Positions 4,539 to 64,000 of a DNA stretch of 64,000 nt are shown here, one piece after another. Numbering within the stretch: the first letter of the stretch is position 1; the number at the start of each line of letters is the position of its first letter. The notes beneath the pieces are model-generated. The model was given only the letters and a program-made list of their open reading frames with translations. It had not been told where the DNA came from and did no database searches. The position numbers were made by a program, and so were the translations under genes. The stretch is from an uncultured Gammaproteobacteria bacterium (lineage in GTDB: Bacteria; Patescibacteriota; Patescibacteriia; UBA2591; UBA6264): NCBI GenBank assembly GCA_964580825.1, contig CAZOLB010000001.1:3066-67065 (forward strand). Direction: 5' to 3'.

Positions 4539-7500
4539 TTATTGGGATTTTCGCGGTAAAACTGTGGCATACCCCGTTCCCGCCGGAATAAGACGACCAA
4601 CAATAACATTCTCTTTTAATCCCCGCAAATGATCCGCTCTACCGCTGACTGCCGTATTAACCAATATTCTTGAAGTTTCCTGAAATGAAGCCGCTGACAA
4701 CCAACTATCAATCGAAAGGGAAACCCTAGTCACGCCCAGCAATAATTCTTTAGCTTCAGCCGATTTTTTACCCCTTTTTTCGGCCAGTTTATTAACTTCC
4801 AATAAATATGATCTAGGAATCACCTCTCCGGGTAAGAGGTCGGTATCACCGGCGTCTTCGACCAAATATCGCGAAAACATCTGCCGAATGACCACTTCCA
4901 CATGCTTATCATTCAATCTCTGCCCTTGAGAGGAATAAATATATTGAATCTCTTTAAGAATATATTTCTCCACTTCTCTTCTGCCTCTTAGTTCATAAAG
5001 CTCATGTAAATCCAAACTTCCATCTGTTAAGCGTTGTCCTTTAACTACTTTTTCTCCATCCTTGACCCAAACGGAATAACCCGTTATATCATATTCTTCT
5101 TCATTCCCGGAGTCAATCTTTTTGGAAGTACGAGCAGTCTTTTTAAAGGAGGCGGGATTACGATTATTACGACTATATTTGACTATCAATTTCTGTTGGC
5201 CCGGTTCCCGAATAATTTTAATCACTCCGTCATCCAACGCCAAAACGGCTTTTCTTTTAATGGGGCGAACTTCAAAAAGCTCTTGAACCCTAGGCAAACC
5301 CTGAGTAATATCATGGCCGGCCACACCGCCGGTATGGAACGTTCTTAAAGTAAGCTGCGTCCCCGGTTCGCCAATGCTTTGAGCGGCGATAATTCCAACC
5401 GGAGCGCCGACTTTTACCGGTTGATTATATCCCAAATCGTAACCATAACACTGCGAACACACTCCCCTTACCGACTGACAAGTCAAAACCGAACGAATAA
5501 AAACTTCCTCTGGGTCGGCCGCCTCTATTTCTTTAGCTTTTCCCTGGCTAATAATTTCATCGGCTTTAACAATAATTTTTTTTGTTTTAGGGTTTCTAAT
5601 CGGTTGGGCGGCCACTCGACCAAACAATCTTTTTCGCCAACCCTCTCCTATTTCCCGATTATCTTCGCGCGTTACTTTGATGCCCTGAGTATCATGACAA
5701 TCCTTTTCAGTGATAATCACATCCTGACAAACATCGACTATTCTTCTAGTTAAATATCCCGCGCTCGCCGTTCTTAAGGCCGTGTCGGAAACGCCTTTTC
5801 GAGAACCGTGGGTGGAAATAAAAAATTCCAAAACGTTAAATCCTTCTTTAAACGAAGATTTAATGGGCAATTCAATTAAACGCCCGGTCGGCGAAGAAAC
5901 AATTCCTCTCATTCCGAACATCTGGGTAAGTTGCATCCATGAACCTCTAGCCCCCGATTCAACCATAGAAAAAACCGAATTGGAAGCCGGTTGATTTTTT
6001 TTGACCATTTCCGTAATTTTATCCTTGGCCGCGATCCAAACCTCGATACTCTTTAAATAGCGTTCTTGTTCGGACAATAAACCCATCTCGTATTGGGAAC
6101 GAATTTGGTCAATATCTTTCTCCGCTTGCTGAAGAATTTGACTTTTTTCCGGTAAACTCGGCAGGTCGTCCATTCCCCAGGAAAGCCCGGAATGAGTCAA
6201 ATACGAAAGAGTGGTTTCTTTTAAAAGGTCCAAAGATTCGACCGCTTTATCCGTCCCATATTTCTCTATAATATTGACGATAATCTCGTTTAATTTGCTT
6301 TTATTGACTATAGTATCCAAAGAATAAATATCCGGGGGCAAAATCGAGTTAAAAATAACCCTACCGACACTTACTTGCTTAACCTCGCCATTTATTCTGA
6401 CTTTAATTCGTTTTTGCAGACTTATTTTCCCAAGCTGGTAAGCTAAAATCGATTCGCCGACGCTCCCGAAAGTCAACATTTTCGACTTATTATCGGTCTC
6501 GTCTTCAATTGAAGTCATATAATAAGCGCCCCAAATCATATCCTTAGTCGGCGTTACGATCGGTTCGCCAGTGGCCGGTTTTAAAAGATTTTTTGTGGAA
6601 AGGATAATTTCTTTTGCTTCTTGTTGCGCCTTCGCAGTGATCGGCAAATGAACCGCCATTTGGTCGCCGTCAAAATCCGCATTAAAAGCGGCACAAACCA
6701 AAGGATGAATCTGAATTGCCTTACCTTCTATTAAGACTGGCTGGAACGCTTGAACGCCTAAACGATGAAGTGTTGGGGCGCGGTTAAGCAAAACATAAGT
6801 ATTTTTAGTGATTTCTTCCAAAATAGCCCAAACATCATCCGTCCCACTTTCAATCAATCGATTGGCGCTTTTAATATTATGAGTAAAGCCTCTTTCAATA
6901 AGTTTAGCGGCAATAAACGGCTTAAATAATTCAAGAGCCATAATTTTGGGCAAGCCGCACTGATGAAGTTTAAGGCGGGGGCCAACCACGATTACTGAAC
7001 GACCAGAATAATCGACTCTTTTACCAAGTAAATTTTGACGAAAACGACCCTGTTTTCCTTTTAAAATATCGGCTAAAGACTTTAACGAGCGACGCTGACC
7101 AGTGGAAGCAATGGTAGTTTTTCCCGATCTCATTTCGTTGTCTAATAAAGCGTCGACCGCTTCCTGAAGCATCCTTTTTTCATTGCGCAAAATCACCTCC
7201 GGCGCATGTAATTCATAAAGGCGTTTTAAACGATTATTGCGATTAATCACGCGGCGGTATAAATCATTTAAATCCGATGAAGCAAACCGTCCGCCGTCTA
7301 AAGGAACTAAAGGACGAAGATCTGGCGGGATAACCGGTACTATCTTTAAAATCATGTATTCGGGCTTAATTTTATTAACCATAAAATTACGAACATATTT
7401 TAATCTCTGAACTATCTTTTTTTTCTTCATCGGGTTGTCCGTCTCATTTTTTTCTTTTTCCAAATCTCGAGTCAATTCAACTAGATTGATATTTTGAAGG

Positions 7501-8268: not shown

Positions 8269-11200
8269 TTATAATTCCACTTTCTTCCCCTCCTTTGTCA
8301 TTTCAACATTTAAACACAAACCTTTAAGTTCGCGAACTAAAACGCTAAACGATTCAGGAATATTAATCTCTTTAACCGCTTCCCCTTTAATTATCGACTC
8401 ATACGCCTTACTTCGCCCAATAACGTCATCTGATTTAATCGTCAGCATTTCCTGTAGCGTGTAAGCGGCGCCATATCCTTCCAGTGCCCACACTTCCATC
8501 TCGCCAAATCTCTGACCGCCAAACTGGGCCTTGCCACCCAATGGTTGTTGAGTAATTAGAGAATACGGGCCAATGGAACGCTGATGGATTTTATCTTCAA
8601 CTAAATGATTAAGTTTAATCACATAAATATAACCGACAGTAACGGGCTCGATGAATGGCTCGCTACTCCGTCCGTCGTAAAGAGCAACCTTACCGGTTGA
8701 AGAAAAACCCGCTCTAACTAATTCTTGTTTGATTTTTTCTTCGTTTATTCCATTTAAAACCGGCGTTGCCACTTTATAGCCCAACTTCTTAGCCGCTAAA
8801 CCCAAATGTGTTTCCAAAATCTGTCCCAAATTCATTCTTGAAACGACTCCCAAAGGATTGAGAATAATATCAACCGGTGTCCCATCCTCCAAATACGGCA
8901 TATCTTCTTGGGGGATTATCATGGAAATAACTCCTTTATTTCCATGCCGGCCGGCTACTTTATCGCCTACCTGAATTTTCCGCATATCCGCAACCAAAAC
9001 ATGAATTGATTTAATAACGCCTGGCGGCAATTTATCTCCTTTCTCTCGAGAAAATACTTTTATACCAATCACCTTGCCATGCTCCCCATGTTCAAGATAA
9101 AGAGAAGAATCCCGCACATCGCGGGCCTTTTCCCCAAAAATCGCCCGTAAAAGTTTTTCCTCAGCGGTCAATTCAGCTTCGCCTCGAGGAGTAATTTTCC
9201 CCACTAAAATATCGCCTGACTTAACCTCGGCGCCGATTCTAATTATTCCCTCTTCATCCAAATTTCTCAATTTCTCTTCACTGACATTAGGTATATCGCA
9301 AGTGGTCATTTCCGGTCCGAATTTTGTTTCCCGAATATCAACCGCGTGTTCATCTATATGAATAGAAGTAAATTCATCATTTTGAACCACTCGCGATGAA
9401 ATCAAAATCGCGTCTTCATAATTTCCCCCCTCCCAGGCCATAAAAGCCACTAAAATATTCTGTCCCAAAGCCAATTCTCCATCTTCAATTGAAGAATCCT
9501 GGGCTAGAATATCACCGGCTCTGAATTTCTGATTTTTAGCTATCGCCGGACGTTGATTAAAACAAGTATCAAAATTTGAACGCTGATACTTATTAAGATA
9601 GTAAATTTCTGTTTTGCCCGAATTAAAAACAACGGAAACATGACTGGCATCAACCTCTTTAACCCGGCCACTTTCGGGAGCGATAATCAAATGACCGCTA
9701 TCCCACGCCACCCTGCTTTCAACGCCAGTACCAACAATTGGCGAGTGAGGTTTAATTAAAGGAACGGCCTGTCTCTGCATATTAGTTCCCATCAAAGCCC
9801 TAACTCCGTCATCATGCTCTAAAAACGGTATCAGAGAAGTGGCGATACTGACGATTTGATTGGCCGCTACGTCGATAAATTCCACTTCCTCCGCCCGACA
9901 AAATCCCGGCCGACCATAAATCCTCGCCTCTACCTTGTTTTCTAAAATTTTTCCCTTTTTGTCAATTTGAACGGAAAAGGGAGCTAAAATATGCTGATCC
10001 TCTTCATAAGCGGTCAAATAAACAATTTTTCCGGTTAATTTTTTATTTTTTATTTCTCTATAAGGAGTTTCAATAAACCCATATTCATTAAGGCGGGCGT
10101 AACAAGAAAGATGTCCAACCAGCCCAACATTTGGACCTTCTGGCGTGGCAATCGGACAAATTTTTCCATAAAAAGTCCGATGGACATCGCGAACTTCAAA
10201 ACCAGCCCTTTCGCGCGTCAAACCTCCCGGACCAACCACGGTCAATCTTCTTTTATGTTCCAACTCTGAGAGCAAATTTGTCTGATCCATAAACTGCGAC
10301 AACGGAGAGGACATAAAAAATTCTTTAACCACGCCGGCAATCGGCCGAATATTAATCAATTGGCCAGGAGATAAAATCTTGTTTTCCACAACACTCATCC
10401 TGTCCTTGATAATGCGTTGAAGTCGAAGCATCCCTACTCGCATTCTATTTTGAACTAATTCGCCTACAGCTTTAATTCTCCTATTAGACAAATGGTCTAT
10501 GTCATCCGGAGAAGATTGTTCAGTATTGAGTCGAACCAATTCATTAATAATGGCGACTAAATCCTCGCGACGAATTACTTTATCGTCTATTTTTTGACTA
10601 AAACCCAAACGTTGATTCATTTTATACCGTCCCACCCCGCTTAAGCTATAACGATTAGAACGGAAAAACATGGCGTAAATTAACGACTTAGCATTATCAA
10701 CCGTGGCTAAATCGCCCGGTCTAATTTTTCTGTAAACTTCAATTAATCCTTCTTCTTCAGAAGAGGAAGGATCTTTTTCCAAAGTCGCCTTGATATAATC
10801 GAGGATCGGGGGTTCTTTTTTGTCAGTGGCAATTTTCGACGCCGACGCGGACATCTCGGTTTTAGACGAAAAAACTTTCAAAATTTCTTTATCGGATCCT
10901 AAGCCGAAAACTCGCAAAAGAGCCGTCACTGCCGTTTTTCTTTGGCGATCAATTCTCGCCCAAATAACATTATGGGCGTCGGTTTCAAATTCAAGCCAAG
11001 CGCCTCTATCGGGAATAATTTTGGCGCTGTAAAAAAGTCGCCCCTTGATCGACTCAGCTGAAAAAAATACGCCGGGCGACCTAATAAGTTGCTGGATAAC
11101 AACTCTTTCAATCCCATTAATAATAAAAGTTCCTCTTTCGGTCATTAGAGGAATATCGCCAAAATAAACATCTTGATCGACTTTTTTACCAGTCCGTTTA

Positions 11201-13224: not shown

Positions 13225-14045
13225 CAACTAATGCAACGTTAAACGTTGCACCTTTATTGCACCTTGCTACTCTAATATATATTTGGTAATATCCTCAAAA
13301 TCATCTTTAAACCATTTATCAATAAAATCTTCATAACCCTCAAAACCATTTTTATCAAATTCTACCTCGAATAATTCTGAAACTGTCTGATAATCAATTA
13401 AAAGTGAATGACGCTTACCCATATAGTCCAAATGAGCTGACCATTTATATGAATCAGTAAACTGTCTTATCTTAACACGATCCTGGAGACGATGTTCTTT
13501 CCAGTTTGGTTCGACCAACTTCGCATGGTTCAAATTAATATACCTTAACAAAACCATCGCATATTTAATATCTTTAACACCAATAGACTGGTAAGAATTT
13601 TGAAATAAACGACCACGTCTTTCATGTCGAGCATTAAAATATTTAGTATAAGCATTAGCAATCCTATTCATATATTTCGAGATTCCACCATCTATTAAAG
13701 AAATTAAGATGAAATGGAAATGATTTGGAAGGAGATTCCAAGTAATAAAAGTAGTTAAAGGAGATGATTCTCTGTTGTAAAAACTTTCAGGCGGCTCTTC
13801 GCTGGTTAATATTGCTTCAGCTGCTTGTATGGTTTCCTTTTGGGTCATATTCCTCTTGGGACTCCCTATTCTGTATACCCACATTAGAAATATAAAACGG
13901 CAATACTCGGCATAATCGTTGAAAATCTTACGTTCCTCCGTTCCGTGGTTAAATATATGAAACGGAATTTCTGCTTTTGTAAAATATTGACGCATAAATA
14001 AAATTGAATATTTATTATTCAATGCAACGTTTAACGTTGCATTAT
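13225..14045 (-). mobile_element. IS200/IS605-like (RAYT-like) insertion: HUH tyrosine-transposase gene bounded by two palindromic hairpins
   Basis: The left end carries TGCAACGTTaAACGTTGCA (13232-13250). The right end carries AATGCAACGTTtAACGTTGCATT (14021-14043). They are near-identical perfect palindromes and bracket a Y1-transposase ORF. The element sits between a housekeeping gene and a tRNA gene. Confidence 0.6.
13267..13995 (-). CDS. tnpA: IS200/IS605-family HUH (Y1) transposase, REP-associated tyrosine transposase-like
   Basis: It carries the HUH motif (NHFHFILI) and a catalytic-Tyr motif (FQNSYQSIG, compare the WQxSYY of IS200 TnpA). There are about 100 aa of C-terminal extension. 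The start is assigned to the ATG at 13995 (MRQYF…), because the ORF-track start at 14088 would run through the right-end hairpin. Confidence 0.65.
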   Translation of the reverse strand: MRQYFTKAEIPFHIFNHGTEERKIFNDYAEYCRFIFLMWVYRIGSPKRNMTQKETIQAAEAILTSEEPPESFYNRESSPLTTFITWNLLPNHFHFILISLIDGGISKYMNRIANAYTKYFNARHERRGRLFQNSYQSIGVKDIKYAMVLLRYINLNHAKLVEPNWKEHRLQDRVKIRQFTDSYKWSAHLDYMGKRHSLLIDYQTVSELFEVEFDKNGFEGYEDFIDKWFKDDFEDITKYILE

Positions 14046-14093
14046 TTTCTGGCACGCCAAATGCTCGCGAGAAAACTTTCACCCCCACACCAA

Positions 14094-14165
14094 TCCCCTC
14101 GACAGGAATCGAACCTGTATCCTAAGCTCCGGAAGCTTATATTCTATCCATTGAACTACGAGGGG
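14094..14165 (-). tRNA. tRNA-Arg (anticodon CCG)
   Basis: It folds as a 72-nt cloverleaf: acceptor CCCCTCG/CGAGGGG, D-arm GTTC…GAAT, anticodon stem TAAGC/GCTTA with loop TTCCGGA, and T-arm ACAGG-TTCGATT-CCTGT. CCA is not encoded. Confidence 0.8.
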
Positions 14166-14171
14166 AAAAAT

Positions 14172-20121: not shown

Positions 20122-21243
20122 TTATTTTTTTTCAACCGTCTTTTTAAAACCAAACTGCCGAAAGGAAAAGAAAACAATTAAACAGCTAGCTAAGGCAATT
20201 AAAAAAAACAAAGCAATCACTTTGCCCGTAGTCCTGGCAAATAAGGAAATAAATCCAAAAAAAACCGCAACTAACCAATAAAAGATAGCTGTCCCGCGAT
20301 GTGAAAATCCAATGTTTAATAAGCGGAAATGGAGATGTTTCTGATCACCTGAAAACGGCGAACGATGTTCAATAAAAATTCTTTGAATAACCACGCTAAT
20401 AAGATCGATGATTGCCAAGCCGAGAATTAAAAAAGTGGTTGCCAATTTGCCGCCTGAAATTATTGCCAAAATTCCCAATATAAAACCGGCAAAAAGACTC
20501 CCTCCTTCGCCTAAAAAAATCTTTGCCGGATGGAAATTAAAAACCAAAAATCCTAAACCAGCGCCGGCTAAAATCAAGGCCATTATTCCAATGTCAGGCT
20601 GATAAAACCTGGTTAAAAAACAAAGTCCGGCAATAGTTAAAGATCCGATAACCGTCATTCCCGAGACCAAGCCATCCAGTCCGTCGAGCAATTTGGTGGC
20701 ATACATTAAAACCATTAACCAAATAAAAGTTATAATATCAGCAAGAGGCGTAAAATAATATGGAATTCCGTTTAGACGGATTATCTCAATTTTTACCTTG
20801 TCAAAATATAAATAACCTTCTCTTAAAGGATTATTAATAAACTCAATGCCGATGCCGCTGGCAATAACCGCCAAACAAGCCAAAATCGGCCAAATAATCT
20901 GTTTCTGCGGTTTTACATTGTATTTATCATCTAAAAACCCCCCGACCATTAAAAACAAGCCGGCAATAAATATGCCCGCTAAATGTTTAATTGGGATTTT
21001 CCTGATAAATCCGCCTAATTCCGGAATTAAATTCCAGGGGTTAAAATAAATAATAAACAAAACAATAAAGAAAACGATGAAAATAGCCGTCCCGCCTAAA
21101 AGAGGCGTCGCTTCACGATGAATTTTACGCTCTATCACTCCCGCATAATCAAGAATTCGCCATTTTATAGCCAAACGGCGAATCAAAAAAGTAAAAACAA
21201 CCGAAAGAATAAAACCAATTAAAAATAAAATTAAGAACAACAT
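20122..21243 (-). CDS. Polyprenyl-phosphate N-acetylhexosamine-1-phosphate transferase (MraY/WecA, glycosyltransferase family 4)
   Basis: 373 aa with about 10 TM helices and the cytoplasmic loop motif GGFLDDKYN. This is family-level similarity; MraY versus WecA/TagO is not resolved. Confidence 0.65.
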   Translation of the reverse strand: MLFLILFLIGFILSVVFTFLIRRLAIKWRILDYAGVIERKIHREATPLLGGTAIFIVFFIVLFIIYFNPWNLIPELGGFIRKIPIKHLAGIFIAGLFLMVGGFLDDKYNVKPQKQIIWPILACLAVIASGIGIEFINNPLREGYLYFDKVKIEIIRLNGIPYYFTPLADIITFIWLMVLMYATKLLDGLDGLVSGMTVIGSLTIAGLCFLTRFYQPDIGIMALILAGAGLGFLVFNFHPAKIFLGEGGSLFAGFILGILAIISGGKLATTFLILGLAIIDLISVVIQRIFIEHRSPFSGDQKHLHFRLLNIGFSHRGTAIFYWLVAVFFGFISLFARTTGKVIALFFLIALASCLIVFFSFRQFGFKKTVEKK

Positions 21244-21253
21244 AATTAAGCAA

Positions 21254-21709: not shown

Positions 21710-21754
21710 AAGAACAAAAGAACCTCTGTTTCATATCTATTAATAATAATCGAA

Positions 21755-22008
21755 AAAATAAAAGACCGCTGGCAGTATCGTATCGCAGCGGTCATCTATC
21801 ACGACCCCATCGGGGATTACATACGGGACCAAGGGGAGTTTTCTTCGCCTTTTCTCAAGAGTTACTTGCTTCTTCACTCCTTAGAAACGTTCCCCCCTTT
21901 TAGCGGGTTGAGATCTCTTATGCGAAACCCTCACCCAACCCTCACCCCATGAAAACTCTCTCTTGTCCCGGGACAAGAGCTTTGATTTCATCCCTCGGTC
22001 CCTCTCAC
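21755..22008 (-). ncRNA. Structured small RNA of unassigned class with its own promoter and intrinsic terminator
   Basis: A 370-nt gap in an otherwise compact region. A minus-strand promoter (TTGTTT, 16 nt, TATACT) lies at 22017-22044. The 5' GGGACCGAGGG pairs with 3' CCCUUGGUCCC as a terminal helix, about 170 nt apart. There is an internal perfect hairpin CUCUUGUCC-CG-GGACAAGAG. A terminator (GACCGCUG…CAGCGGUC followed by UUUUAUUUUUU) sits at about 21755-21795. No coding capacity. Confidence 0.45.
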
Positions 22009-22078
22009 TATTTAATAGTATAGCACCTTAAATAAAAAAAACAAGGAGTTACCTGTGGATAATTCTGAAAAAATAACT

Positions 22079-26348: not shown

Positions 26349-26897
26349 TTATTTACTTGAAGCGACCGCTTTCTTTCCGGCTTTCCTTTTAATAAATTCG
26401 CCAAAATATTTAATCCCCTTGCCCTTGTAGGGTTCCGGTTTTTTTAAACGTCTAATCCGAGCGGCTGTTTCTCCCACCAACTGTTTATCAACGCCCCTAA
26501 TGATAATAATATTCTGTTCCACTTTTATTCCAATGCCTTGGGGAATCAAAAAATCAACTGAATGAGAAAAGCCGATATTAAGAGTCAATTTCCCATTACC
26601 GACCTGGGCTCGATAACCGACTCCAACCAATTCTAATTTCTTTTCAAATTCCTCATTCACTCCTTTAATCATATTTGAAATCAAACGAGCGAATGTCCCC
26701 CAAAGAGATCTTTGATTTTTTATTTCAGAATTTTCAACGGATAATTTTATTTGTTCGTCTTTTATTTCAATATTCAAAAAATCCGGCAATTTCTGTCTTA
26801 ATTCTCCTTTCGGACCTTTAACAAAAACCTCTTTTGCCTCCGCTTTTACTTCGACGGAGGAAGGGATAAAAATTACTTGTCTACCTACTCTCGACAT
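26349..26897 (-). CDS. rplF: 50S ribosomal protein L6
   Basis: MSRVGRQVIFIPSSVEVK… with the two-domain L6 layout. Confidence 0.9.
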   Translation of the reverse strand: MSRVGRQVIFIPSSVEVKAEAKEVFVKGPKGELRQKLPDFLNIEIKDEQIKLSVENSEIKNQRSLWGTFARLISNMIKGVNEEFEKKLELVGVGYRAQVGNGKLTLNIGFSHSVDFLIPQGIGIKVEQNIIIIRGVDKQLVGETAARIRRLKKPEPYKGKGIKYFGEFIKRKAGKKAVASSK

Positions 26898-26959
26898 ACA
26901 CTCTATAAAATAATTCCAATCTATATAAACACTTATATGAGATTATACTTTATCAAAAA

Positions 26960-27391
26960 CTAATATATCTCGCAAATTAATTCCCCTCCCAACCTGTTTT
27001 TGCGGGCCCTTTGACCGGTCATTAAACCTTGGGGAGTGGATAAAATAACCATTCCTAATCCGCTTAAAACAGACGGTATCTTATCTTTCTTTACATAAAT
27101 GCGTTGACCGGGGCGGCTAATCCTCTTTAAACTTTTAATCGCCGACTGTCCCTGTTTGTCATATTTCAGGGCGATTTTTATCTGCTTAAAAGACGTATTA
27201 TTAAAAATATCCTCTCCTGTCTCTCCTTCTCCCGCCGAAGAAAAAATTTCCGCCTTTTCAATCCAATGCTCTTCTTCCAGAATTTTAGCCAAGTCATACT
27301 TAATTCTGGAATAAGGCAAAATCACTTCCGTTTTTTTGACGGCGATAATATTACGCATTCTTGTTAACATGTCGGCTATTGGATCTGTCAT
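26960..27391 (-). CDS. rpsH: 30S ribosomal protein S8
   Basis: MTDPIADMLTRMRN… is the S8 N-terminal signature. Confidence 0.9.
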   Translation of the reverse strand: MTDPIADMLTRMRNIIAVKKTEVILPYSRIKYDLAKILEEEHWIEKAEIFSSAGEGETGEDIFNNTSFKQIKIALKYDKQGQSAIKSLKRISRPGQRIYVKKDKIPSVLSGLGMVILSTPQGLMTGQRARKNRLGGELICEIY

Positions 27392-27518
27392 AAGCGCATA
27401 CTAAAACTAAAAATAAAAAATATAAGAATATTTATTTGACAACTTTTTTAAATTAAGACTCCGATATTTTTTCATTTTTTTGGTATGTATTTTTTATATT
27501 TTATATTCTATTTAAAAA

Positions 27519-27704
27519 CTACCAACTACTCTTTCTAACTCCCGGGATAACTCCTTTTGAGGCTAGTTCTCTAAAACAAATGCGGCAAACGCCAAACTCT
27601 CTCAGATATCCACGTCTTCTCCCGCAACGCCAACAACGCCGGATAACCCGAGTAGAGTATTTCGGTTTTCTTTTAGCTCTAATTATTTGGGATTTTTTAG
27701 CCAT
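27519..27704 (-). CDS. rpsZ: 30S ribosomal protein S14, zinc-binding type Z
   Basis: 61 aa with [20 protein letters not shown]. Confidence 0.9.
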
Positions 27705-27812
27705 ATTAATAACTAATTTTCATGAATCAATGGCGAATTCCTGCGAATCACAAATTCATGATTAATGATGATTTGTTTTTCAAATTCGTGGTAATCCGTT
27801 ATATATTATTCC
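27705..27812. repeat. ACGAAT-box palindromic element, copy 1 (rpsZ-rplE spacer)
   Basis: This 108-nt spacer sits where most bacteria have fewer than 20 nt. It contains …cgaattcctGCGAATCACaAATTCaTGATTaatg… plus a downstream ttttcaaattcgtgg. The same ~80-nt pattern recurs at 28699-28801 and 29174-29234. Confidence 0.5.
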
Positions 27813-28364
27813 TTATCTGAATGGTATTCCAAATAACTTAAATAATTCTGTACCTTCTTCTTTATTTTTTGCCGTTGTCGATATCACCACCTGCAAACCG
27901 TGAACCTTTTCCATTTTCTCGGGATTTATCTCTGGGAAAACCGTTTGTTCTTTAAAGCCGATCGACAAATTTCCTCTTTCGTCCACGCTTTTTAGAGCAA
28001 TGCCGCGAAAATCTCTTATTCTTGGCAAGGCGATATTGATTAATTTTTCTAAAAAATCATACATTCTCGCCGACCTTAACACAACGCTCGCTCCCACGGT
28101 GCTTGAATCTCTTATTTTAAAACCGGCAATGGATTTCTTAGCTATGTTTAAAATCGGCCTTTGTCCGGTGATTCCCGATATTGTTTTCGCAACTATCTCG
28201 ACATACCGATGATCTTTTTCGGCCATATCCCGATTAATTCCAATATTAACGGTAATTTTTTGAATTTTAGGCACGGCCTGATTATTTTTATAACCAAAAC
28301 ATTTTTTCATTTCAGGGACAACTTCTTTCAAATATTTATGTTTAAAATTCATATTTATTAGCAA
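27813..28364 (-). CDS. rplE: 50S ribosomal protein L5
   Basis: …YKNNQAVPKIQKITVNIGI… and …FRGI… L5 motifs. Confidence 0.9.
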   Translation of the reverse strand: MLINMNFKHKYLKEVVPEMKKCFGYKNNQAVPKIQKITVNIGINRDMAEKDHRYVEIVAKTISGITGQRPILNIAKKSIAGFKIRDSSTVGASVVLRSARMYDFLEKLINIALPRIRDFRGIALKSVDERGNLSIGFKEQTVFPEINPEKMEKVHGLQVVISTTAKNKEEGTELFKLFGIPFR

Positions 28365-28389
28365 TAATAAACTTCACAAGTTATAACCG

Positions 28390-28698
28390 CTATATTATTT
28401 CTTTACATTTTCGACAAAACCTTTTTTTCGCGCCATCGGCTAGTATTTTATAACCCACCCTTATCGCCTTTTTACATCGAGGACAGACGAGCATAATATT
28501 TGAAGCCGCCAAAGGCATGGCCATTTTGATTTTTTGCCCCTTTTCCCCTTCTCTTTTAGGCCGAATATGTTTAGTGACTAAATTCATCCCTTCCACTACC
28601 ATTCTCCCCTCTTTACTCAAAACCTTAAGCACCCGCCCTTTCTGGCCGCGGTCTTTACCTGTCAAAATCTCGACTATATCGTCTTTTTTAATACGCAT
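28390..28698 (-). CDS. rplX: 50S ribosomal protein L24 (KOW), C-terminus carrying four Cys in a zinc-ribbon arrangement
   Basis: The KOW motif is present (KKDDIVEILTGKDRGQKGRVLKV). The C-terminus NIMLVCPRCKKAIRVGYKILADGAKKRFCRKCKEII aligns to the normal L24 tail but with CxxC…CxxC. Confidence 0.85.
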   Translation of the reverse strand: MRIKKDDIVEILTGKDRGQKGRVLKVLSKEGRMVVEGMNLVTKHIRPKREGEKGQKIKMAMPLAASNIMLVCPRCKKAIRVGYKILADGAKKRFCRKCKEII

Positions 28699-28801
28699 AT
28701 TAATAGCTAATTTTTACGAATCTATGACGAACTTCCACGAATCACGAATTCGCGATTCGTATTCTATTCGTTTCTAAATTTGTGACGATGTTGTGTATTA
28801 T
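28699..28801. repeat. ACGAAT-box palindromic element, copy 2 (rplX-rplN spacer)
   Basis: The core ACGAATCACGAATTCGCGATTCGT (28737-28760) is a 24-nt palindrome with 2 mismatches, centred on GAATTC. It is flanked by tattcgtttctaaatttgtg, as in copies 1 and 3. Confidence 0.55.
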
Positions 28802-29173
28802 TTATAATACCTCTGGGGCCATTGAAATAATTTTTAAATACCCCTTTTCGCGCAATTCCCTTGCCACCGCGCCAAAAAGACGCGTGCCTTTCGGTTCTTT
28901 GGTTTTAACATCAATAATCACCGCGGCGTTATCGTCGAATCTGATATAAGTCCCGTCGGGACGCCTTGTCTCCTTTTTTGTCCTGACTATTAGTGCTTGA
29001 ATGACTTCCCCTTTTTTAACCATAGTGTGAGGGACCGCCTTTTTAATGGTGGCGGTAATAATATCTCCTATCCCGGCGTAGCGCCTTTTATAACCGCCCC
29101 AGACGCGAATACACATTATCTCTTTGGCGCCTGTATTGTCGATTATTTTTATTCTTGATTGGGCTTGAATCAT
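28802..29173 (-). CDS. rplN: 50S ribosomal protein L14
   Basis: [24 protein letters not shown]… is the L14 signature. Confidence 0.9.
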
Positions 29174-29234
29174 ATAAACAACTAATCTCGAATTTAAAAC
29201 GAATTTTTAAGAATCACGAATCCGCGATTCTGTT
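29174..29234. repeat. ACGAAT-box palindromic element, copy 3 (rplN-rpsQ spacer)
   Basis: tcgaatttaaaacgaatttttaaGAATCACGAATCCGCGATTCtgttttattcgtttttcaaatccgcgg. It shares the core and the flanking ttattcgttt(t/c)t(c/a)aaat with copy 2. Confidence 0.5.
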
Positions 29235-29486
29235 TTATTCGTTTTTCAAATCCGCGGTAATTCGTTTAATTAATTTCCATTTTTTATCCCTTGATAAAGG
29301 CCGGCATTCCTCAAAAATAACTTTATCACCCACTTTGGCCTGATTATTCTCATCGTGAACTTTAAATTTTTTTCCGACGCGATATCTTTTTTTATATAAG
29401 GGATGTACTTTTATTCTTGTCACTCTAACAACAATAGTCTTTTTCATTTTGTCACTAATGACTTCGCCTTGAAACTTTTTTTTCAT
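29235..29486 (-). CDS. rpsQ: 30S ribosomal protein S17
   Basis: …GEVISDKMKKTIVVRVTR…HPLYKK… is the S17 OB-fold signature. Confidence 0.9.
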   Translation of the reverse strand: MKKKFQGEVISDKMKKTIVVRVTRIKVHPLYKKRYRVGKKFKVHDENNQAKVGDKVIFEECRPLSRDKKWKLIKRITADLKNE

Positions 29487-29522
29487 AGAAATTTACTTTT
29501 TATCGCGAATTAAAAACTGCAT

Positions 29523-29762
29523 TTATTCACTCTTGGATGGCACCCGTCTTGACATTTCTATTTGCGTTGATGAATAGTCTTTTGTATTCCGTAATACAGT
29601 GGCTATTTGGGCAATCGCCTTTTTTGCTTTTCTTATCTCGCGAACGTTCTTAAATTGTTTCAACTGAACGTCAAAACGCAATGTCCTTAATTTCTCTCGG
29701 CCTTCTCTTAGCATTCTTTCCAGTTCTTGTTTAGTTTTTTGTTTAATATCTTTTACTTGCAT
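29523..29762 (-). CDS. rpmC: 50S ribosomal protein L29 (with about 15-aa C-terminal extension)
   Basis: …ELERMLREGREKLRTLRFDVQLKQFKNVREIRKAKKAIAQIATVLR… is an L29 coiled coil. Confidence 0.85.
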   Translation of the reverse strand: MQVKDIKQKTKQELERMLREGREKLRTLRFDVQLKQFKNVREIRKAKKAIAQIATVLRNTKDYSSTQIEMSRRVPSKSE

Positions 29763-29775
29763 ATTTCAGAATAAA

Positions 29776-30189
29776 TTACGCTTTTTCGACGATTTTAGTT
29801 TTTATTGGCAACTTATGCGAAACAAGAATCAAGGCTCTGCGGGCAATAATTTTGTCCACGCCGGTAATTTCAAAAAGAATATTCCCCGCCTTGACTGGAG
29901 CCACATAATGATCGACTGCTCCTTTCCCCTTGCCCATTGGCATTTCCGCCCCTTTGAAAGTAACCGGTTTAGATGGAAATATCCTTATCCACATTTTACC
30001 TCCCTTTTTGAAGAAACGGGCAATAGTACGACGCGCTGCTTCAATTTGCCGAGCCGTAATCCATCTTGATTCCAAGGCCTTTAAGCCAAAATTTCCAAAG
30101 CTCAGTATATTTCCCCTACTCGCTTGTCCTTCCATTCTCCGCCTGCCTTTTTGGGACTTTCGATATTTTGTTCTTTTGGGCATCAACAT
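29776..30189 (-). CDS. rplP: 50S ribosomal protein L16
   Basis: [11 protein letters not shown]…GR… is the L16 signature. Confidence 0.9.
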
Positions 30190-30252
30190 AAGCGCTCCTC
30201 TAAATTAAAATCTAAAAATGAAAAATATAAAACATTAAAATTTAAATTACTT

Positions 30253-30921
30253 TTAAATATCGCTTTTATTTTTTTTACTTTTATTTTCAAATCGTTCCCC
30301 CCGGTAAATCCATACCTTAACCCCGACGCTTCCATAGATCGTCGCCGCCTTTCCTCGGGAATAATCTATGTCGGCTCGAAGGGTATGAAGAGGGAGCTGT
30401 CCCCAGATCAGCTTCTCCGGCCTGGCTATTTCCGAACCATCCAAACGCCCTTTGACGACTATTTTACAACCTTTAGCCCCGCCGGCCTTCACTTGCTTAA
30501 TAACCTTTTTCATCACTCGACGATAAGGGAGCCTTTTTTCTAAATCAATAATTGCGCCTTCTAAAACAACCGCGGCTGAAAGCATTGGAAATTTTTCTTC
30601 TATCACGTTTATTTCCAAAACAAAATTGTCAGATAAAAATCTTTTTTTAATTTCTTTTTTTATATCCTCAACGTCAAGTCCTCCGCGTCCGATAATCAAA
30701 CCCGGTTTAGCCGTGTGAATTATAATCCGCATCACATTGGCTAATATTTCAATATTGACGATTGAGATGCCACAATTTTTAAGCTTTCCTGACAAAAATT
30801 TCCTAATCTTCGTGTCTTGTTCCAAAAAATACCTAAACTTGCGTTCTGAGGCAAACCATTTTGATTCCCATTCTCTAATCATCGGGATGCGGAAAATTTT
30901 CGGATTTACTTTACGACCCAT
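30253..30921 (-). CDS. rpsC: 30S ribosomal protein S3
   Basis: MGRKVNPKIFRIPMIREWESKWFA… with KH and S3_C domains. Confidence 0.9.
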   Translation of the reverse strand: MGRKVNPKIFRIPMIREWESKWFASERKFRYFLEQDTKIRKFLSGKLKNCGISIVNIEILANVMRIIIHTAKPGLIIGRGGLDVEDIKKEIKKRFLSDNFVLEINVIEEKFPMLSAAVVLEGAIIDLEKRLPYRRVMKKVIKQVKAGGAKGCKIVVKGRLDGSEIARPEKLIWGQLPLHTLRADIDYSRGKAATIYGSVGVKVWIYRGERFENKSKKNKSDI

Positions 30922-31016
30922 AACAATAAACTCCTAATCCTACGAATATTATCGCTAATTATTGCTAATAAATATTTACGGTTATTCGCGATAAAATTAA
31001 TACGATTGACAACTTT

Positions 31017-31622
31017 TTAAATGCTTTTTCTTCTAAATATTTTTTTTAATCCTCCCCCTGTTTCTTTTTTTCTTACTTTATCAAGATGTTGTTTCGCGCG
31101 TCGTTTACTCCGGCGTCGGACGTCAAAAATTTCTCTATCCTCGTTTATTCTTTCTTTTAATTCGGCGGGTTGTCTGGATAAAGGCGCTTTTTTATCGGAA
31201 ACCATGACTTCTCCTGACGGTTTCATCTCAACCAGCGGAGATAATTTCTTCTGCGTCGTTATTTTTTTCAATCTCGATTTATCGCTTAATATTTTTCCCT
31301 CCAAAATAATTGACAAATGCGTCGTCCTTTTGCGAATTCGACCAGCTCGACCAAAAGCTCTCGCCCGCCATCTTTTAAGCATTGGACCGGGATTAACAAG
31401 GATTTCCTTAATAAAAAGATTTTCTTTTTTTAAATTAAAATCATGCTCGGCATTGGCGACGGCCGACGTTAAAACTTTCAAAATCAAATCTGACGCCTTT
31501 TTGGGAATAAATTTCAAATGATTAAGAGCGGCTACCGCGTTTTCACCCTTAATAAGGTCGGCCACCAGTTTTAATTTTTTAGGAGATATTTTAAGATATT
31601 TACTTGTCGCTCTTATTTGCAT
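31017..31622 (-). CDS. rplV: 50S ribosomal protein L22 with about 90-aa basic C-terminal extension
   Basis: The L22 core (…KISPKKLKLVADLIKG…ALNHLKF…) ends near residue 110 (…THLSIILEGK). The remaining 90 aa are K/R/E-rich. Confidence 0.9.
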   Translation of the reverse strand: MQIRATSKYLKISPKKLKLVADLIKGENAVAALNHLKFIPKKASDLILKVLTSAVANAEHDFNLKKENLFIKEILVNPGPMLKRWRARAFGRAGRIRKRTTHLSIILEGKILSDKSRLKKITTQKKLSPLVEMKPSGEVMVSDKKAPLSRQPAELKERINEDREIFDVRRRSKRRAKQHLDKVRKKETGGGLKKIFRRKSI

Positions 31623-33152: not shown

Positions 33153-34019
33153 TTACTTGTCCGCCGTTCTCTTTGCTCTCTTCGCCGATGACTCCTTGTT
33201 TTCCGGCTTCTTGGGGCCTGTTTTTTCCATTCCTCCCGCCTTTTTCTTTTCCGACTTCGGTTTCGATTTCTCGGTCTTTTTTGTCTTTGGCGATTTTTTT
33301 GTTGCCTTCGCCGGCTCTTTTTTTATCTGCCGACTTATTGTCTTTTCTTTTAAAGAAAAACATAATTTGCCAAAATATTCTTGTATTTTATCGACTCCTT
33401 CGACCGTGGTTAATAAATAATCCGCTCTCAAAAGGTCAAGAATGTTTAATCCAGTGACAGGAAGCATTTTAACTCCTTTTATATTCCGACCGGATTTGAT
33501 GACATTTTCATCTTTATTTGAGAGACTAATTAAAACATTTTGGGATTTATCACTATTTATCAAACTGGTGATAATTAAATTGATTCTTTTCGTCTTAATT
33601 TCCGGCATCACCAATTTATCCAAAATATACATCTTTTTTTCTTTTACTTTATCCGAAAGACACATTAATAAAACCTTTTTTTTGCTTTTCTTATTAAGTT
33701 TCTGGTCGTAAACTCTTTCTTTTCTCGGGCCAAAAATGATGCCGCCGCCGCGCCAAAGAGGGGAACGAATAGAGCCGGCTCTGGCTCGTCCCGTGCCTTT
33801 CTGGCGCCAGGGCTTTATGCCGCCGCCGCGAATTTCTCCCTTTACTTTTGTTTGCGCCCAAGGATGACGTTGATTGGCCAAAAGTCCGACCACTGCCTGA
33901 CGAATCAATTCTGATTTTGGTTCAACGCCAAAAATCTCAGGATTTAACTCTTTTTCTCCCACCACCTTCCCTTCTTGATTGTAGATATCAACCTTAATCA
34001 TATTTGACAATTCATTCAT
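33153..34019 (-). CDS. rplD: 50S ribosomal protein L4 with about 70-aa lysine-rich C-terminal tail
   Basis: The L4 core (…GGGIKPWRQKGTGRARAGSIRSPLWRGGG…) ends …YLLTTVEGVDKIQEYF. It is followed by a K/E/P-rich low-complexity tail. Confidence 0.9.
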   Translation of the reverse strand: MNELSNMIKVDIYNQEGKVVGEKELNPEIFGVEPKSELIRQAVVGLLANQRHPWAQTKVKGEIRGGGIKPWRQKGTGRARAGSIRSPLWRGGGIIFGPRKERVYDQKLNKKSKKKVLLMCLSDKVKEKKMYILDKLVMPEIKTKRINLIITSLINSDKSQNVLISLSNKDENVIKSGRNIKGVKMLPVTGLNILDLLRADYLLTTVEGVDKIQEYFGKLCFSLKEKTISRQIKKEPAKATKKSPKTKKTEKSKPKSEKKKAGGMEKTGPKKPENKESSAKRAKRTADK

Positions 34020-34088
34020 TTATTCGTAATTCGTAATTCGCGCCATTCACATGGTATTCGCCTGCCTACACCGGCAGGTAGTTCCGCA

Positions 34089-34703: not shown

Positions 34704-34709
34704 ATTTAT

Positions 34710-34766
34710 AATAATATAAAAGCCGGGTCGCCGCCAAACTTCTTATATCCGGTCCAACCCCCGGCT
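34710..34766 (-). promoter_or_regulatory. GC-rich hairpin plus T-run (terminator/attenuator-like) immediately upstream of rplC, inside an atypical 227-nt rpsJ-rplC spacer
   Basis: The minus strand reads AGCCGGGGGUUGGACCGGAUAUAAGAAGUUUGGCGGCGACCCGGCU, followed by UUUUAUAUUAUUAU, then the rplC ATG. It is the only strongly GC-rich non-coding segment in the operon. Confidence 0.4.
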
Positions 34767-34930
34767 CTAATCAAATCTGGCTAAGTTGTTTCGCTTGCTT
34801 AGAATTTAACCTCTATAACGAAAAGGTACAACTGGTCGGACGATAATCGTCATAAATTCACTCTCGACCCGATATACTTTCATTAATTTATTAATGGCGA
34901 TTCGTGGCAAAAATTGGATAATCAAATTGA

Positions 34931-63044: not shown

Positions 63045-63299
63045 TATTGCACTTAAATCGGCGATAAGACGAATAAAAAACAGAAATAAAATTCGAAAAT
63101 CAAAATATTATATGCCTATTTTTACTAATCCTAATTTTCAATCCTTCTCATTTCAATATAATCCGCTTAGGGACTAAAACCCTAAATTGCGGCATTGTGA
63201 GTTAAATGGTGAATTAGAAATTTGACCTATTAGGACTTCTCGGCTAAATTTGTTGCCAAACTTACACCTAAAGCCTATATACCCGGTAATCTTCCGGGG

Positions 63300-64000
<701 letters not shown>

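Follow-up and report, generated by a model that had tools for sequence, protein, structure and literature searches.

Related hairpin-forming repeats in three spacers of a Patescibacteria ribosomal-protein operon

Three related elements between ribosomal-protein genes

The 64-kb stretch of contig CAZOLB010000001.1 analyzed here (the window; G+C 38%) carries the S10-spc ribosomal-protein (r-protein) operon on its minus strand, and three intercistronic spacers of this operon, rplE-rpsZ, rplN-rplX and rpsQ-rplN, contain diverged copies of an ~80-nt palindromic element. The spacers are 108, 103 and 61 nt long, and both these lengths and the assignment of the surrounding minus-strand genes (rpsQ, rplN, rplX, rplE and rpsZ) had been given correctly in an earlier description of the sequence, the original prediction. 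The genes were assigned from open reading frames (ORFs) and from Pfam labels on identical contigs, which confirm rpsQ, rplN, rplX, rplE, rpsH and their neighbors and leave rpsZ uncalled. Directly after rpsE comes rplO, with no L30 gene in between. Because the closest homologs of the L24 protein carry Patescibacteria or Parcubacteria labels, we take the source organism to be a bacterium of the candidate phyla radiation (CPR). The element sequences are identical across at least six independent assemblies (ENA, JGI and Logan), and an assembly artifact is therefore rejected. The available strains are at least 99.95% identical, and since their single-nucleotide polymorphisms are few and all lie outside the elements, strain-level variation is uninformative.

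When aligned in the mRNA sense, the regions directly upstream of rpsZ, rplX and rplN (copies 1, 2 and 3, respectively; Table 1) are paralogous over ~100 nt, up to the ATG of the downstream gene. Copies 1 and 3 are 68% identical over 90 nt and copies 2 and 3 are 79% identical over 62 nt (blastn, both E~1e-10), with a divergence among copies of ~32-34%. The 24-nt near-palindrome around GAATTC reported earlier is present in copy 2 where it had been placed. The degenerate 20-nt core GAATCRCGRATYCGYGATTC has three matches in the window, which are exactly the three copies, compared with 0.01 expected from shuffles, and none of 100 shuffles gave three matches. A profile of the three copies returns copy 2 with E=1e-27, although copy 2 is itself part of that profile. 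The claim of three related elements is thus borne out. The ACGAAT box for which the family had been named fares less well, because ACGAAT occurs 26 times and ATTCGT 20 times in the window, compared with ~21 expected from base composition; only the clustering of these hexamers is significant, and the hexamers themselves are at chance frequency. A compositional artifact is therefore ruled out for the three copies and accepted for the bare hexamer. Pattern and profile searches found no further copies in the window or in an additional 8.8 kb of the same genome.

Copies 1 and 2 lie inside their spacers, as first described, whereas copy 3 extends beyond the 61-nt spacer. Its 5' arm enters rpsQ, where it supplies the last ~9 codons and the stop codon and encodes the S17 tail ...RITADLKNE*. 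At its C-terminus, S17 extends 4-8 residues further than its counterparts in L041, L042 and L043. (The sister genomes compared here are labeled L001, L002, L020, L041, L042, L043, L044, L048, L049 and L051.) Recurring NFHES peptides had also been noted; all of them come from spurious ORFs that run antisense to the r-protein genes on the plus strand, and these are the sole ORFs across the element. The observation is a real feature, partly as first described.

Table 1. Positions of the elements and of the other features discussed (window coordinates).
Feature	Position	Strand	Remarks
Copy 1	27705-27812	minus	rplE-rpsZ spacer; decayed; alignable with copies 2 and 3 across ~100 nt
Core of copy 1	27745-27764		pattern search; 3 mismatches
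A/U-rich tail of copy 1	27705-27722	minus	same tail as in copy 2
Copy 2	28699-28801	minus	rplN-rplX spacer; long imperfect hairpin, three helical segments
24-nt near-palindrome of copy 2	28736-28759		ACGAATCACGAATTCGCGATTCGT
20-nt core palindrome of copy 2	28739-28758		pattern search; GAATCACGAATTCGCGATTC on plus strand
A/U-rich tail of copy 2	28699-28716	minus	AAAAUUAG(C/U)UAUUAAU; directly before start codon
Copy 3	29174-29272	minus	rpsQ end to rplN; best-preserved hairpin
Core of copy 3	29211-29230		pattern search
A/U-rich tail of copy 3	29174-29189	minus	same tail as in copy 2
Part of copy 3 within rpsQ	29235-29272		5' arm
Run of three CGAAUUA units	34020-34045	minus	directly upstream of rplD ATG
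H98 expansion of 23S rRNA	63310-63390	minus	81-nt hairpin containing GAUACGAAU...AUUCGUAUC
23S rRNA, part within the window	63209-64000		
Y1 transposase ORF	~13267-14010	minus	IS200/RAYT-like
19-nt palindromes TGCAACGTTWAACGTTGCA	13232-13250; 14023-14041		perfect; flank the Y1 ORF
tRNA-Arg	14093-14166		near the Y1 ORF
rplD (L4)	33153-34019		
Longest L23 ORF	32827-33363		
rpsJ-rplC spacer	34704-34930	minus	227 nt
map-ruvX spacer	21710-22078	minus	369 nt
Region of short ORFs	20178-21253	minus	~1.1 kb
Hairpin between ftsK and HTH_25 gene	2137-2299	minus	163 nt, A-rich/U-rich

Over its entire length the element is an inverted repeat, in which the 5' arm is a series of ACGAAU-like units and the 3' arm a series of AUUCGU-like units. 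Copies 2 and 3 are each predicted to fold as one long imperfect hairpin of three stacked segments (~25 bp and ~26 bp, respectively) with small internal loops. In copy 2, the apical helix P3 (ACGAAUCGCG/CGUGAUUCGU) is followed by ACGAAU/GUUCGU and then by AAUUUA/UAGAUU, and an unpaired A/U-rich tail leads from the hairpin to the rplX ATG; copy 3 has an additional outer 7-bp helix. The minimum free energy (MFE) is -24.4 kcal/mol for copy 2 (z -3.3 and -4.1 in two shuffle tests) and -30.0 kcal/mol for copy 3 (z -4.8 and -5.8). The overall fold of copy 1 is no better than that of shuffles (z 0.0 and -0.8); P3 is retained as 7 bp including two G-U pairs, and the lower helices are mostly lost. Across the three-way alignment P3 is 96% paired and the lower helix 71% paired, and P3 shows three single changes that remain compatible with wobble pairing, besides one double change (A-U, C-G, U-G). 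Covariation over three sequences is not significant, as 162 of 500 shuffles reach the observed value, and sequence differences are not depleted in paired columns.

One earlier proposal was that the repeats are RNA hairpins for processing or attenuation. Of this, the predicted fold of copies 2 and 3 stands; attenuator or terminator features are missing, and any selection at the RNA level is putative. No minus-strand terminator-like sites occur in 26800-31200, where the four sites found are all on the plus strand (3.8 expected), and the tails following the hairpins are A-rich. Nor is there a conserved -35/-10 at aligned positions of the copies, and on these grounds an internal promoter or terminator is ruled out. 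A known RNA family is likewise ruled out, as Rfam gives no match, either at its gathering threshold or with the limit set at E<=5.

Conservation among the copies is highest in the tail between hairpin and AUG (AAAAUUAGYUAUUAAU, 15-18 nt), with differences at 2/18, 3/15 and 4/15 positions, compared with about 30% in paired and 38-50% in unpaired hairpin columns. The tail is probably the translation-initiation region and would then lie outside the repeat proper; this reading would explain why the similarity ends exactly at the ATG. A UUAGUU-like motif 10-20 nt upstream of the AUG is also found before rpsS, rplV, rplO, rpsE, rpsH and rpsJ, and a Shine-Dalgarno (SD)-like word is present in only 14 of the 57 window genes. 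Position -1 is T in 43 of the same 57 genes. A different fixed module, AGCG(A/U)AGCGCUU, stands immediately before many r-protein start codons in L020, L001, L041 and L042.

The same spacers in sister genomes

The corresponding spacers of ordinary bacteria are 5-40 nt long, in agreement with the earlier statement that these genes are nearly contiguous in typical bacteria. The nearest relative found is 79% identical in L24 and the sister genomes span 69-79%, a distance at which filled and empty spacers can be compared but exact empty sites are not alignable. Spacers of 80-300 nt are found in the window and in L001, L020, L041, L042 and L048, whereas the compact sisters L002, L043, L049 and L051 (and in part L044) have 2-50 nt at these positions. 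The rplN-rplX spacer, for example, is 103 nt in the window, 105 nt in L041, 228 nt in L042, 171 nt in L048, 220 nt in L001 and 108 nt in L020, compared with 2-48 nt in L043, L044, L051, L002 and L049. The comparison with related genomes that the original prediction had proposed therefore yields variable presence and absence. Spacers of the same length and unrelated sequence, set out beforehand as the pattern that would speak against the claim, are largely what is seen. The exception is the rplN-rplX spacer of L041, whose element is ~79% identical to the 5' arm of copy 2 (local alignment z 5.6). Only the rplN-rplX element has arms in common with L041, L042 and L048, and other orthologous spacers are mostly unrelated or empty.

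The long hairpins found in the expanded spacers of the clade belong to many different sequence families, and their arms often consist of short tandem units (CTACGAA/TTCGTAG, GTAGCTT/AAGCTAC, GTAAC/GTTAC, GAAATCC and AAAATAAA). In L020, 15 gaps between rplW and rpsE were examined and 12 contain a hairpin; ACGAA-type arrays occur in four spacers of this genome, none of them orthologous to the window copies. Several genomes have closely similar sequences in different spacers. A block of 213 nt is 100% identical in the rpsQ-rplN and rplN-rplX spacers of L001, where one copy supplies a new S17 tail; the block is bounded by ...ATAA and ...TTTTAAG, and two copies cannot separate a target duplication from the element. 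In L020, 190 nt are 96.8% identical between spacers, L042 has 110 nt at 92.7% and 107 nt at 86.9% identity between spacers, and L048 carries paralogous elements in its rplN-rplX and rplE-rpsZ spacers. One family occupies non-orthologous spacers of L001 and L042 at 84% identity over ~120 nt; third-codon (synonymous) positions of these two genomes are saturated (identity 0.2-0.5).

The inserts of the sister genomes also differ in orientation and composition. Modules of L020 occur in both orientations relative to transcription, and GC-rich palindromes are nested in the centers of A/U-rich hairpins in the L041 rplP-rpmC, L020 rplE-rpsZ and L048 rplN-rplX spacers. Two ORFs for GIY-YIG nucleases lie in L042 at 4602-4896 (rpsS-rplV) and 8964-9255 (rplE-rpsZ); they encode ~75 and ~85 aa, are 45% identical and each lie between inverted repeats. 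The termini of these units (CCGCCCTCTATGC...TAGAGGGCGG) recur without an ORF in the rpsQ-rplN spacer of L020, and by its sequence the insert looks like a miniature derivative of the GIY-YIG unit.

Two further repeats were seen in passing. The L042 rplO-secY spacer (L042:12071-12246) consists of two tandem 88-nt units, each with a GC-rich hairpin CTCCCGACTTCC...GGAAGTCGGGAG, and these units are another repeat family in the same operon. In the window itself, the long hairpin between ftsK and an HTH_25 gene (z -2.9) matches the outer arms of several r-protein spacers of L020 with 82% identity over 56-60 nt; as these are low-complexity sequences, homology is uncertain.

Probable palindromic DNA elements and alternative readings

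R-protein operons are among the most compact and conserved bacterial gene clusters, and CPR/Patescibacteria genomes are streamlined. One clade nonetheless carries 100-300-nt hairpin repeats between many of these cistrons, in one genome between nearly all. With moderate confidence, we read the three spacers as holding an old and decaying family of palindromic repeats that resembles REPINs (hairpin-forming doublets of repetitive extragenic palindromic, or REP, sequences) and miniature inverted-repeat transposable elements (MITEs), within a clade-wide population of hairpins that colonizes r-protein spacers and rRNA tips. Among the three options offered in the original prediction, the REP/MITE-like one is the best supported, by paralogy, presence and absence, copying, nesting and the lack of a G-U strand bias.

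According to this model, the element would be an ~80-nt noncoding inverted repeat with arms of 3-4 ACGAAT-like units. The copies would be old and would have diverged from one palindromic element, with copy 1 fitting a series of decaying copies. A wider, lineage-specific population of hairpin repeats would have colonized the S10-spc intercistronic gaps in one Patescibacteria clade, and hairpins were probably inserted at 23S helix tips of the source genome as well. Such elements behave as DNA entities that are copied between spacers and turned over between genomes; they insert into the centers of existing hairpins and would survive where the reading frame and the A/U-rich start region stay intact. 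They may have spread by transposition, by homing, or by gene conversion or template switching. Within this account, the paralogy, the predicted folds, the patchy distribution, the copying from spacer to spacer and from genome to genome, the nesting and the lack of a strand bias are shown, whereas how the elements spread and whether they affect expression are inferences. Because the operon is transcribed through the elements, each copy would appear in the mRNA as an ~25-bp stem-loop between cistrons. The predicted stem is long enough for an RNase III substrate or a barrier to 3'-exonucleases, and any effect of the hairpins on expression would be a consequence of the elements.

The main interest lies in this clade-wide invasion of an operon and in the RNA-processing question that it raises, more than in the ACGAAT box itself. 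Selfish palindromic DNA would be able to invade core genes of the translation apparatus, with similar hairpins on 23S helix tips, and the cell would have to make stoichiometric r-proteins from a transcript with few SD sequences that is studded with ~25-bp stem-loops. For annotation, the consequences are spurious ORFs on the antisense strand and a repeat-encoded S17 tail; for practice, they concern the assembly of metagenome-assembled genomes across repeats and the r-protein block as a phylogenetic marker. In the literature searched, such elements are undescribed in Patescibacteria, and no paper was found that links Patescibacteria or the CPR with intergenic palindromic repeats, with REPINs and their REP-associated tyrosine transposases (RAYTs), or with stem-loops in r-protein operons.

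A structure that is selected only in the transcript should tolerate G-U pairs in the sense strand, which become A·C mismatches in the antisense strand. We folded 34 spacer hairpins in both senses and counted G-U pairs. There are 126 in the sense and 126 in the antisense folds, with a mean energy difference of 0.16 kcal/mol (Wilcoxon p=0.71), and there is therefore no overall sense bias of the kind that RNA-only selection would give. Despite this overall balance, copy 3 and the apical helix of copy 1 lean towards the sense strand. Taken together, paralogy, nesting, turnover, the balanced G-U counts and the 23S expansions agree with palindromic DNA elements that persist where an extra hairpin is tolerated.

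In their working the elements resemble REPINs, BIMEs and MITEs. The closest parallel is provided by REPs and REPINs, which are doublets of REP sequences that form hairpins and are mobilized by RAYT Y1 transposases (Bertels & Rainey 2011, PMC3116915; Di Nocera et al. 2013, PMC3733652). Like them, the elements described here are short noncoding extragenic palindromes, often between genes of one operon; they are inverted doublets able to fold as a single ~80-100-nt stem-loop (here copies 2 and 3), and they come in several families per genome. The nesting seen here matches the occasional insertion of REP dimers within larger palindromes (PMC3733652). A further likeness is that the window contains a RAYT-like gene flanked by palindromes. 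This Y1 transposase ORF scores 29.6 bits against Pfam PF01797 (cutoff 23) and 26 bits against NCBIfam RayT (below the cutoff of 80). Its sequence includes LPNHFHFIL as an HUH-type motif, and RLFQNSYQS contains a candidate for the catalytic tyrosine. The palindromes on either side of it are found nowhere else in the window, and by its sequence the segment 13232-14041 appears to be a REPtron-like unit. A Y1 transposase gene flanked by perfect palindromes indicates that hairpin-handling transposition machinery is present.

The elements also differ from REPs. The palindrome that flanks the RAYT-like gene is unrelated to the ACGAAT element and confined to that place, so that a link between the elements and this gene is ruled out. 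The terminal GTAG/CGTC tag of classical REPs (PMC3733652) is missing: GTAG occurs in none of the three copies, and CGTC only in copy 2, not at a shared terminal position. Only three copies were found, all in one operon; each arm is an array of tandem units of 6-11 nt, where a REP would have a single stem; and the host belongs to a phylum that is absent from the REP literature searched. No autonomous parent element sharing ACGAAT termini was seen in the window, and a GIY-YIG link was found only for another hairpin family (L042 and L020). Because the elements lack the GTAG/CGTC tag and are not the RAYT-flanking repeat, and no target-site duplication or parent element was recognized, we do not class them as REPs or as a named MITE family. 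A phage origin was considered and ruled out, as neither the ACGAAT core nor the end of the L001/L042 family has an exact match in IMG/VR.

With regard to MITEs in general, the elements are short (~80 nt), noncoding inverted repeats in several copies (three), and filled and empty sites occur among related genomes, as the rplN-rplX spacer lengths indicate. Among named families, the Correia elements of Neisseria (PMC2649163) are likewise noncoding inverted-repeat elements of ~100-150 bp in intergenic DNA whose presence varies between related genomes. They are reported to be cotranscribed with neighboring genes as hairpins that RNase III can bind or cut. Here, in contrast, no target-site duplication, IHF (integration host factor) site or promoter-generating ends were recognized and no parent insertion sequence was identified, and RNase III cleavage is a prediction from the fold. 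Hairpin families are also reported to proliferate in intergenic regions of compact organelle genomes and to inflate their spacers, in sponge mitochondria (repetitive hairpin-forming elements, RHE; PMC2800124) and in Fusarium mitochondria, there with repeat-built arms (PMC7218506). These are organellar and not bacterial and have no sequence relationship to the present elements.

Besides the missing tag and the excluded link to the RAYT-like gene, several findings weigh against an origin as mobile palindromic DNA. Copies 2 and 3 differ at ~34% of positions and yet are both strong hairpins. When 26 random substitutions were introduced into copy 3, the stability of copy 2 was reached in 0 of 500 simulations, and in the reverse simulation mutated copy 2 reached the stability of copy 3 in 2 of 500. 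The one-sided changes in the highly paired P3 all remain G-U wobbles in the mRNA sense. These observations point to some force that maintains pairing. In addition, the rplN-rplX element seems to have been in situ since before the split from L041 and L042, and over 27 nt of its 3' arm L041 and L002 agree at 100% of positions, where flanking codons are 63-90% identical; such identity is hard to explain under neutral drift. The upkeep of pairing and of part of the sequence could reflect RNA selection, transposition competence, hairpin-templated repair or recent transfer. Finally, only three copies are present in 64 kb plus 9 kb, in neighboring spacers of one operon. A dispersed mobile family would be expected elsewhere too, and local gene conversion could give the same pattern. 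No target-site duplication is definable, and the copies are too diverged to fix their ends.

The maintained pairing would be accommodated if the hairpins were selected intercistronic RNA stem-loops that serve RNase III-type processing and/or 3'-end protection and so split or insulate cistrons, with repeat spread only the mode of acquisition. We regard this as rather unlikely, although a processing or stabilizing role of this type is possible. The predicted stems are long enough (~25 bp; at least 20 bp, about two helical turns), those of copies 2 and 3 persist at the divergence given above, the double and wobble-compatible changes keep P3 paired in the mRNA sense in every copy, and the sense fold of copy 3 is more stable than its antisense fold by 7.4 kcal/mol. 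The main hairpins of the window do not include the 15-20 nt that precede each AUG. Nearly every spacer of L020 consists of one hairpin followed by an AGCG(A/U)AGCGCUU-AUG module, and the order in L001 and L042 is a stop-proximal GC hairpin, a long A/U hairpin and a start module. The scarcity of SD-like words fits this arrangement, and the Correia elements offer a precedent for repeat hairpins handled by RNase III (PMC2649163). However, the G-U counts and the three-sequence covariation do not support selection on the transcript, modules can face either way, most orthologous spacers have no sequence relationship, the distance between hairpin and AUG varies from ~3 to ~26 nt across loci, and copy 1 has lost most of its structure. 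The hairpins are also dispensable, because sister genomes manage with spacers of 2-40 nt. No RNase III was found among the 30 window proteins scanned against Pfam.

Phage T7 has RNase III hairpins between its genes, and after cleavage the hairpin remains at the 3' end of the upstream message. The ~25-bp imperfect stem-loops between cistrons of a polycistronic mRNA are similar in their possible working, not as a family; T7 sites are conserved, single-copy signals, whereas here repeat families turn over rapidly and cleavage is putative. A more ambitious proposal, which we consider unlikely, is that the hairpin cassettes of the clade form a systematic RNA-processing and insulation system for r-protein mRNAs, in which cassettes made up of a GC stem-loop near the stop codon, a long A/U-rich stem-loop and a start module without an SD sequence are copied from spacer to spacer. 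The cassettes would have been recruited from selfish palindromic or GIY-YIG elements, would compensate for the near-absence of SD-guided initiation through the cleavage or insulation of each cistron, and would also have been fixed as 23S expansion segments. This arrangement would be a functional analog of phage T7 RNase III sites or plastid intercistronic elements. If the hairpins are indeed processing sites, intercistronic RNA processing in the style of phages and plastids would have a counterpart in a cellular organism.

The confinement of the copies to adjacent spacers, seen in the window and in L001, L020, L042 and L048, would also be explained if the palindromes had arisen in place. The conserved A/U-rich start-region motif of rplX, (A/G)UU(C/U)GUAA, present twice, would have become a hairpin through inverted duplication (template switching), local gene conversion would then have carried it to neighboring spacers, and the arms would have grown by slippage. 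The rplX gene is preceded by TT(C/T)GTAA units in the window, L041, L042 and L048, L002 has only the 3' arm (27/27 identical to that of L041), and many families have arms of short tandem units. The lack of a target-site duplication and of copies elsewhere in 73 kb agrees with such an origin. It nevertheless seems improbable to us: in L049, a genome close to L041 and L048, rplX is not preceded by the motif, and families common to non-orthologous spacers of different genomes, foreign GC-rich palindromes nested in hairpin centers and versions bearing GIY-YIG ORFs are left unexplained. Palindromic DNA elements remain the preferred account of these features.

The original prediction had also offered a regulator or r-protein binding site. 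In this reading the repeats would be operators for a dimeric DNA regulator, or mRNA sites that mimic the ACGAAU-containing H98 expansion of the 23S rRNA and bind an r-protein. The near-palindromic core around GAATTC, the ~10-11-nt spacing of ATTCG units, the position of the three sites just upstream of r-protein start codons and the ACGAAU/AUUCGU words of the H98 expansion are all compatible with it. The motif is not conserved, however, as most long-spacer relatives carry other hairpin families and further relatives have short spacers. Similarity to H98 is at chance by profile (E=7.4) and marginal by local alignment, and the products of the downstream genes (L14, L24 and S14) belong to both ribosomal subunits, a misfit for a single rRNA-mimic site. 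Autogenous r-protein operators such as the S8 site at rplE in the Escherichia coli spc operon (PMC3616713) are similarly structured RNAs that adjoin r-protein start codons in this operon. They differ in that the present elements have no Rfam match, including to r-protein leaders, are not conserved at orthologous positions, and form a simple extended helix without a recognizable rRNA mimic. We consider such binding sites very improbable.

Claimed weaker copies, 23S rRNA expansions and neighboring features

Weaker copies of the element had been proposed in three other spacers of the operon and in the 23S rRNA gene. The three-copy profile finds nothing at 30922-31016 (rpsC-rplV) or 34893-34910 (rpsJ-rplC). 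Upstream of rplD the profile gives E=9.1, which does not support membership in the family. The run of three CGAAUUA units there resembles one element arm without a partner arm; its local alignment scores (z 3.1-4.1) are inflated by the repeated hexamer, and its fold is not significant (z -1.2). The run is possibly a relic of the element. The gene that follows encodes an L4 of 288 aa, compared with the usual ~205 aa, and the longest L23 ORF overlaps the 3' end of rplD; the L23 gene called in related contigs is 107 aa.

The proposed copy in the 23S rRNA is a real hairpin, but its membership in the family is not supported (profile E=7.4; local alignment z 1.8-3.0). It is an expansion of H98, which has 81 nt in the Rfam large-subunit alignment where the model has 5 nt, and no other hairpin in the window is as strong (MFE -43.7, z -6.8). 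The expansion and the spacer elements have only the ACGAAU/AUUCGU words in common. It is a like kind of structure, a long hairpin at a tolerated site, and homology to the spacer family is not established. The complete 23S rRNA (L045:5135-9583) measures 4449 nt, compared with 2925 nt in the bacterial model, and contains several long, nearly perfect hairpin expansions, for example at L045 5885-6005, 6697-6760 and 7295-7345 and at H98. No 16S gene was found in the ~5 kb examined upstream of the 23S gene. In a near-identical strain (L046), the rRNA region contains an ORF of the LAGLIDADG type.

Other structured or unusual segments were noted in the window. The rpsJ-rplC spacer ends in a GC-rich stem (AGCCGGG...CCCGGCU) and a U-rich run just before the rplC start, and a similar 3' module is present in the 359-nt rpsJ-rplC spacer of L042. 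Judged from its sequence this module could be an attenuator or an r-protein leader; the spacer has no Rfam match. The ~1.1-kb region at 20178-21253 has no ORF longer than 67 aa. Read by eye, its minus strand may be a frameshift-broken gene for a membrane glycosyl- or phospho-sugar transferase, and it may represent a pseudogene or a frameshift from sequencing or assembly. The map-ruvX spacer is apparently G+C-rich, gives a strong predicted fold (MFE -104 kcal/mol), has no Rfam match at E<=1 and contains a perfect DnaA-box-like TTATCCACA near its 5' end; in L043 the distance between map and ruvX is only 15 nt.

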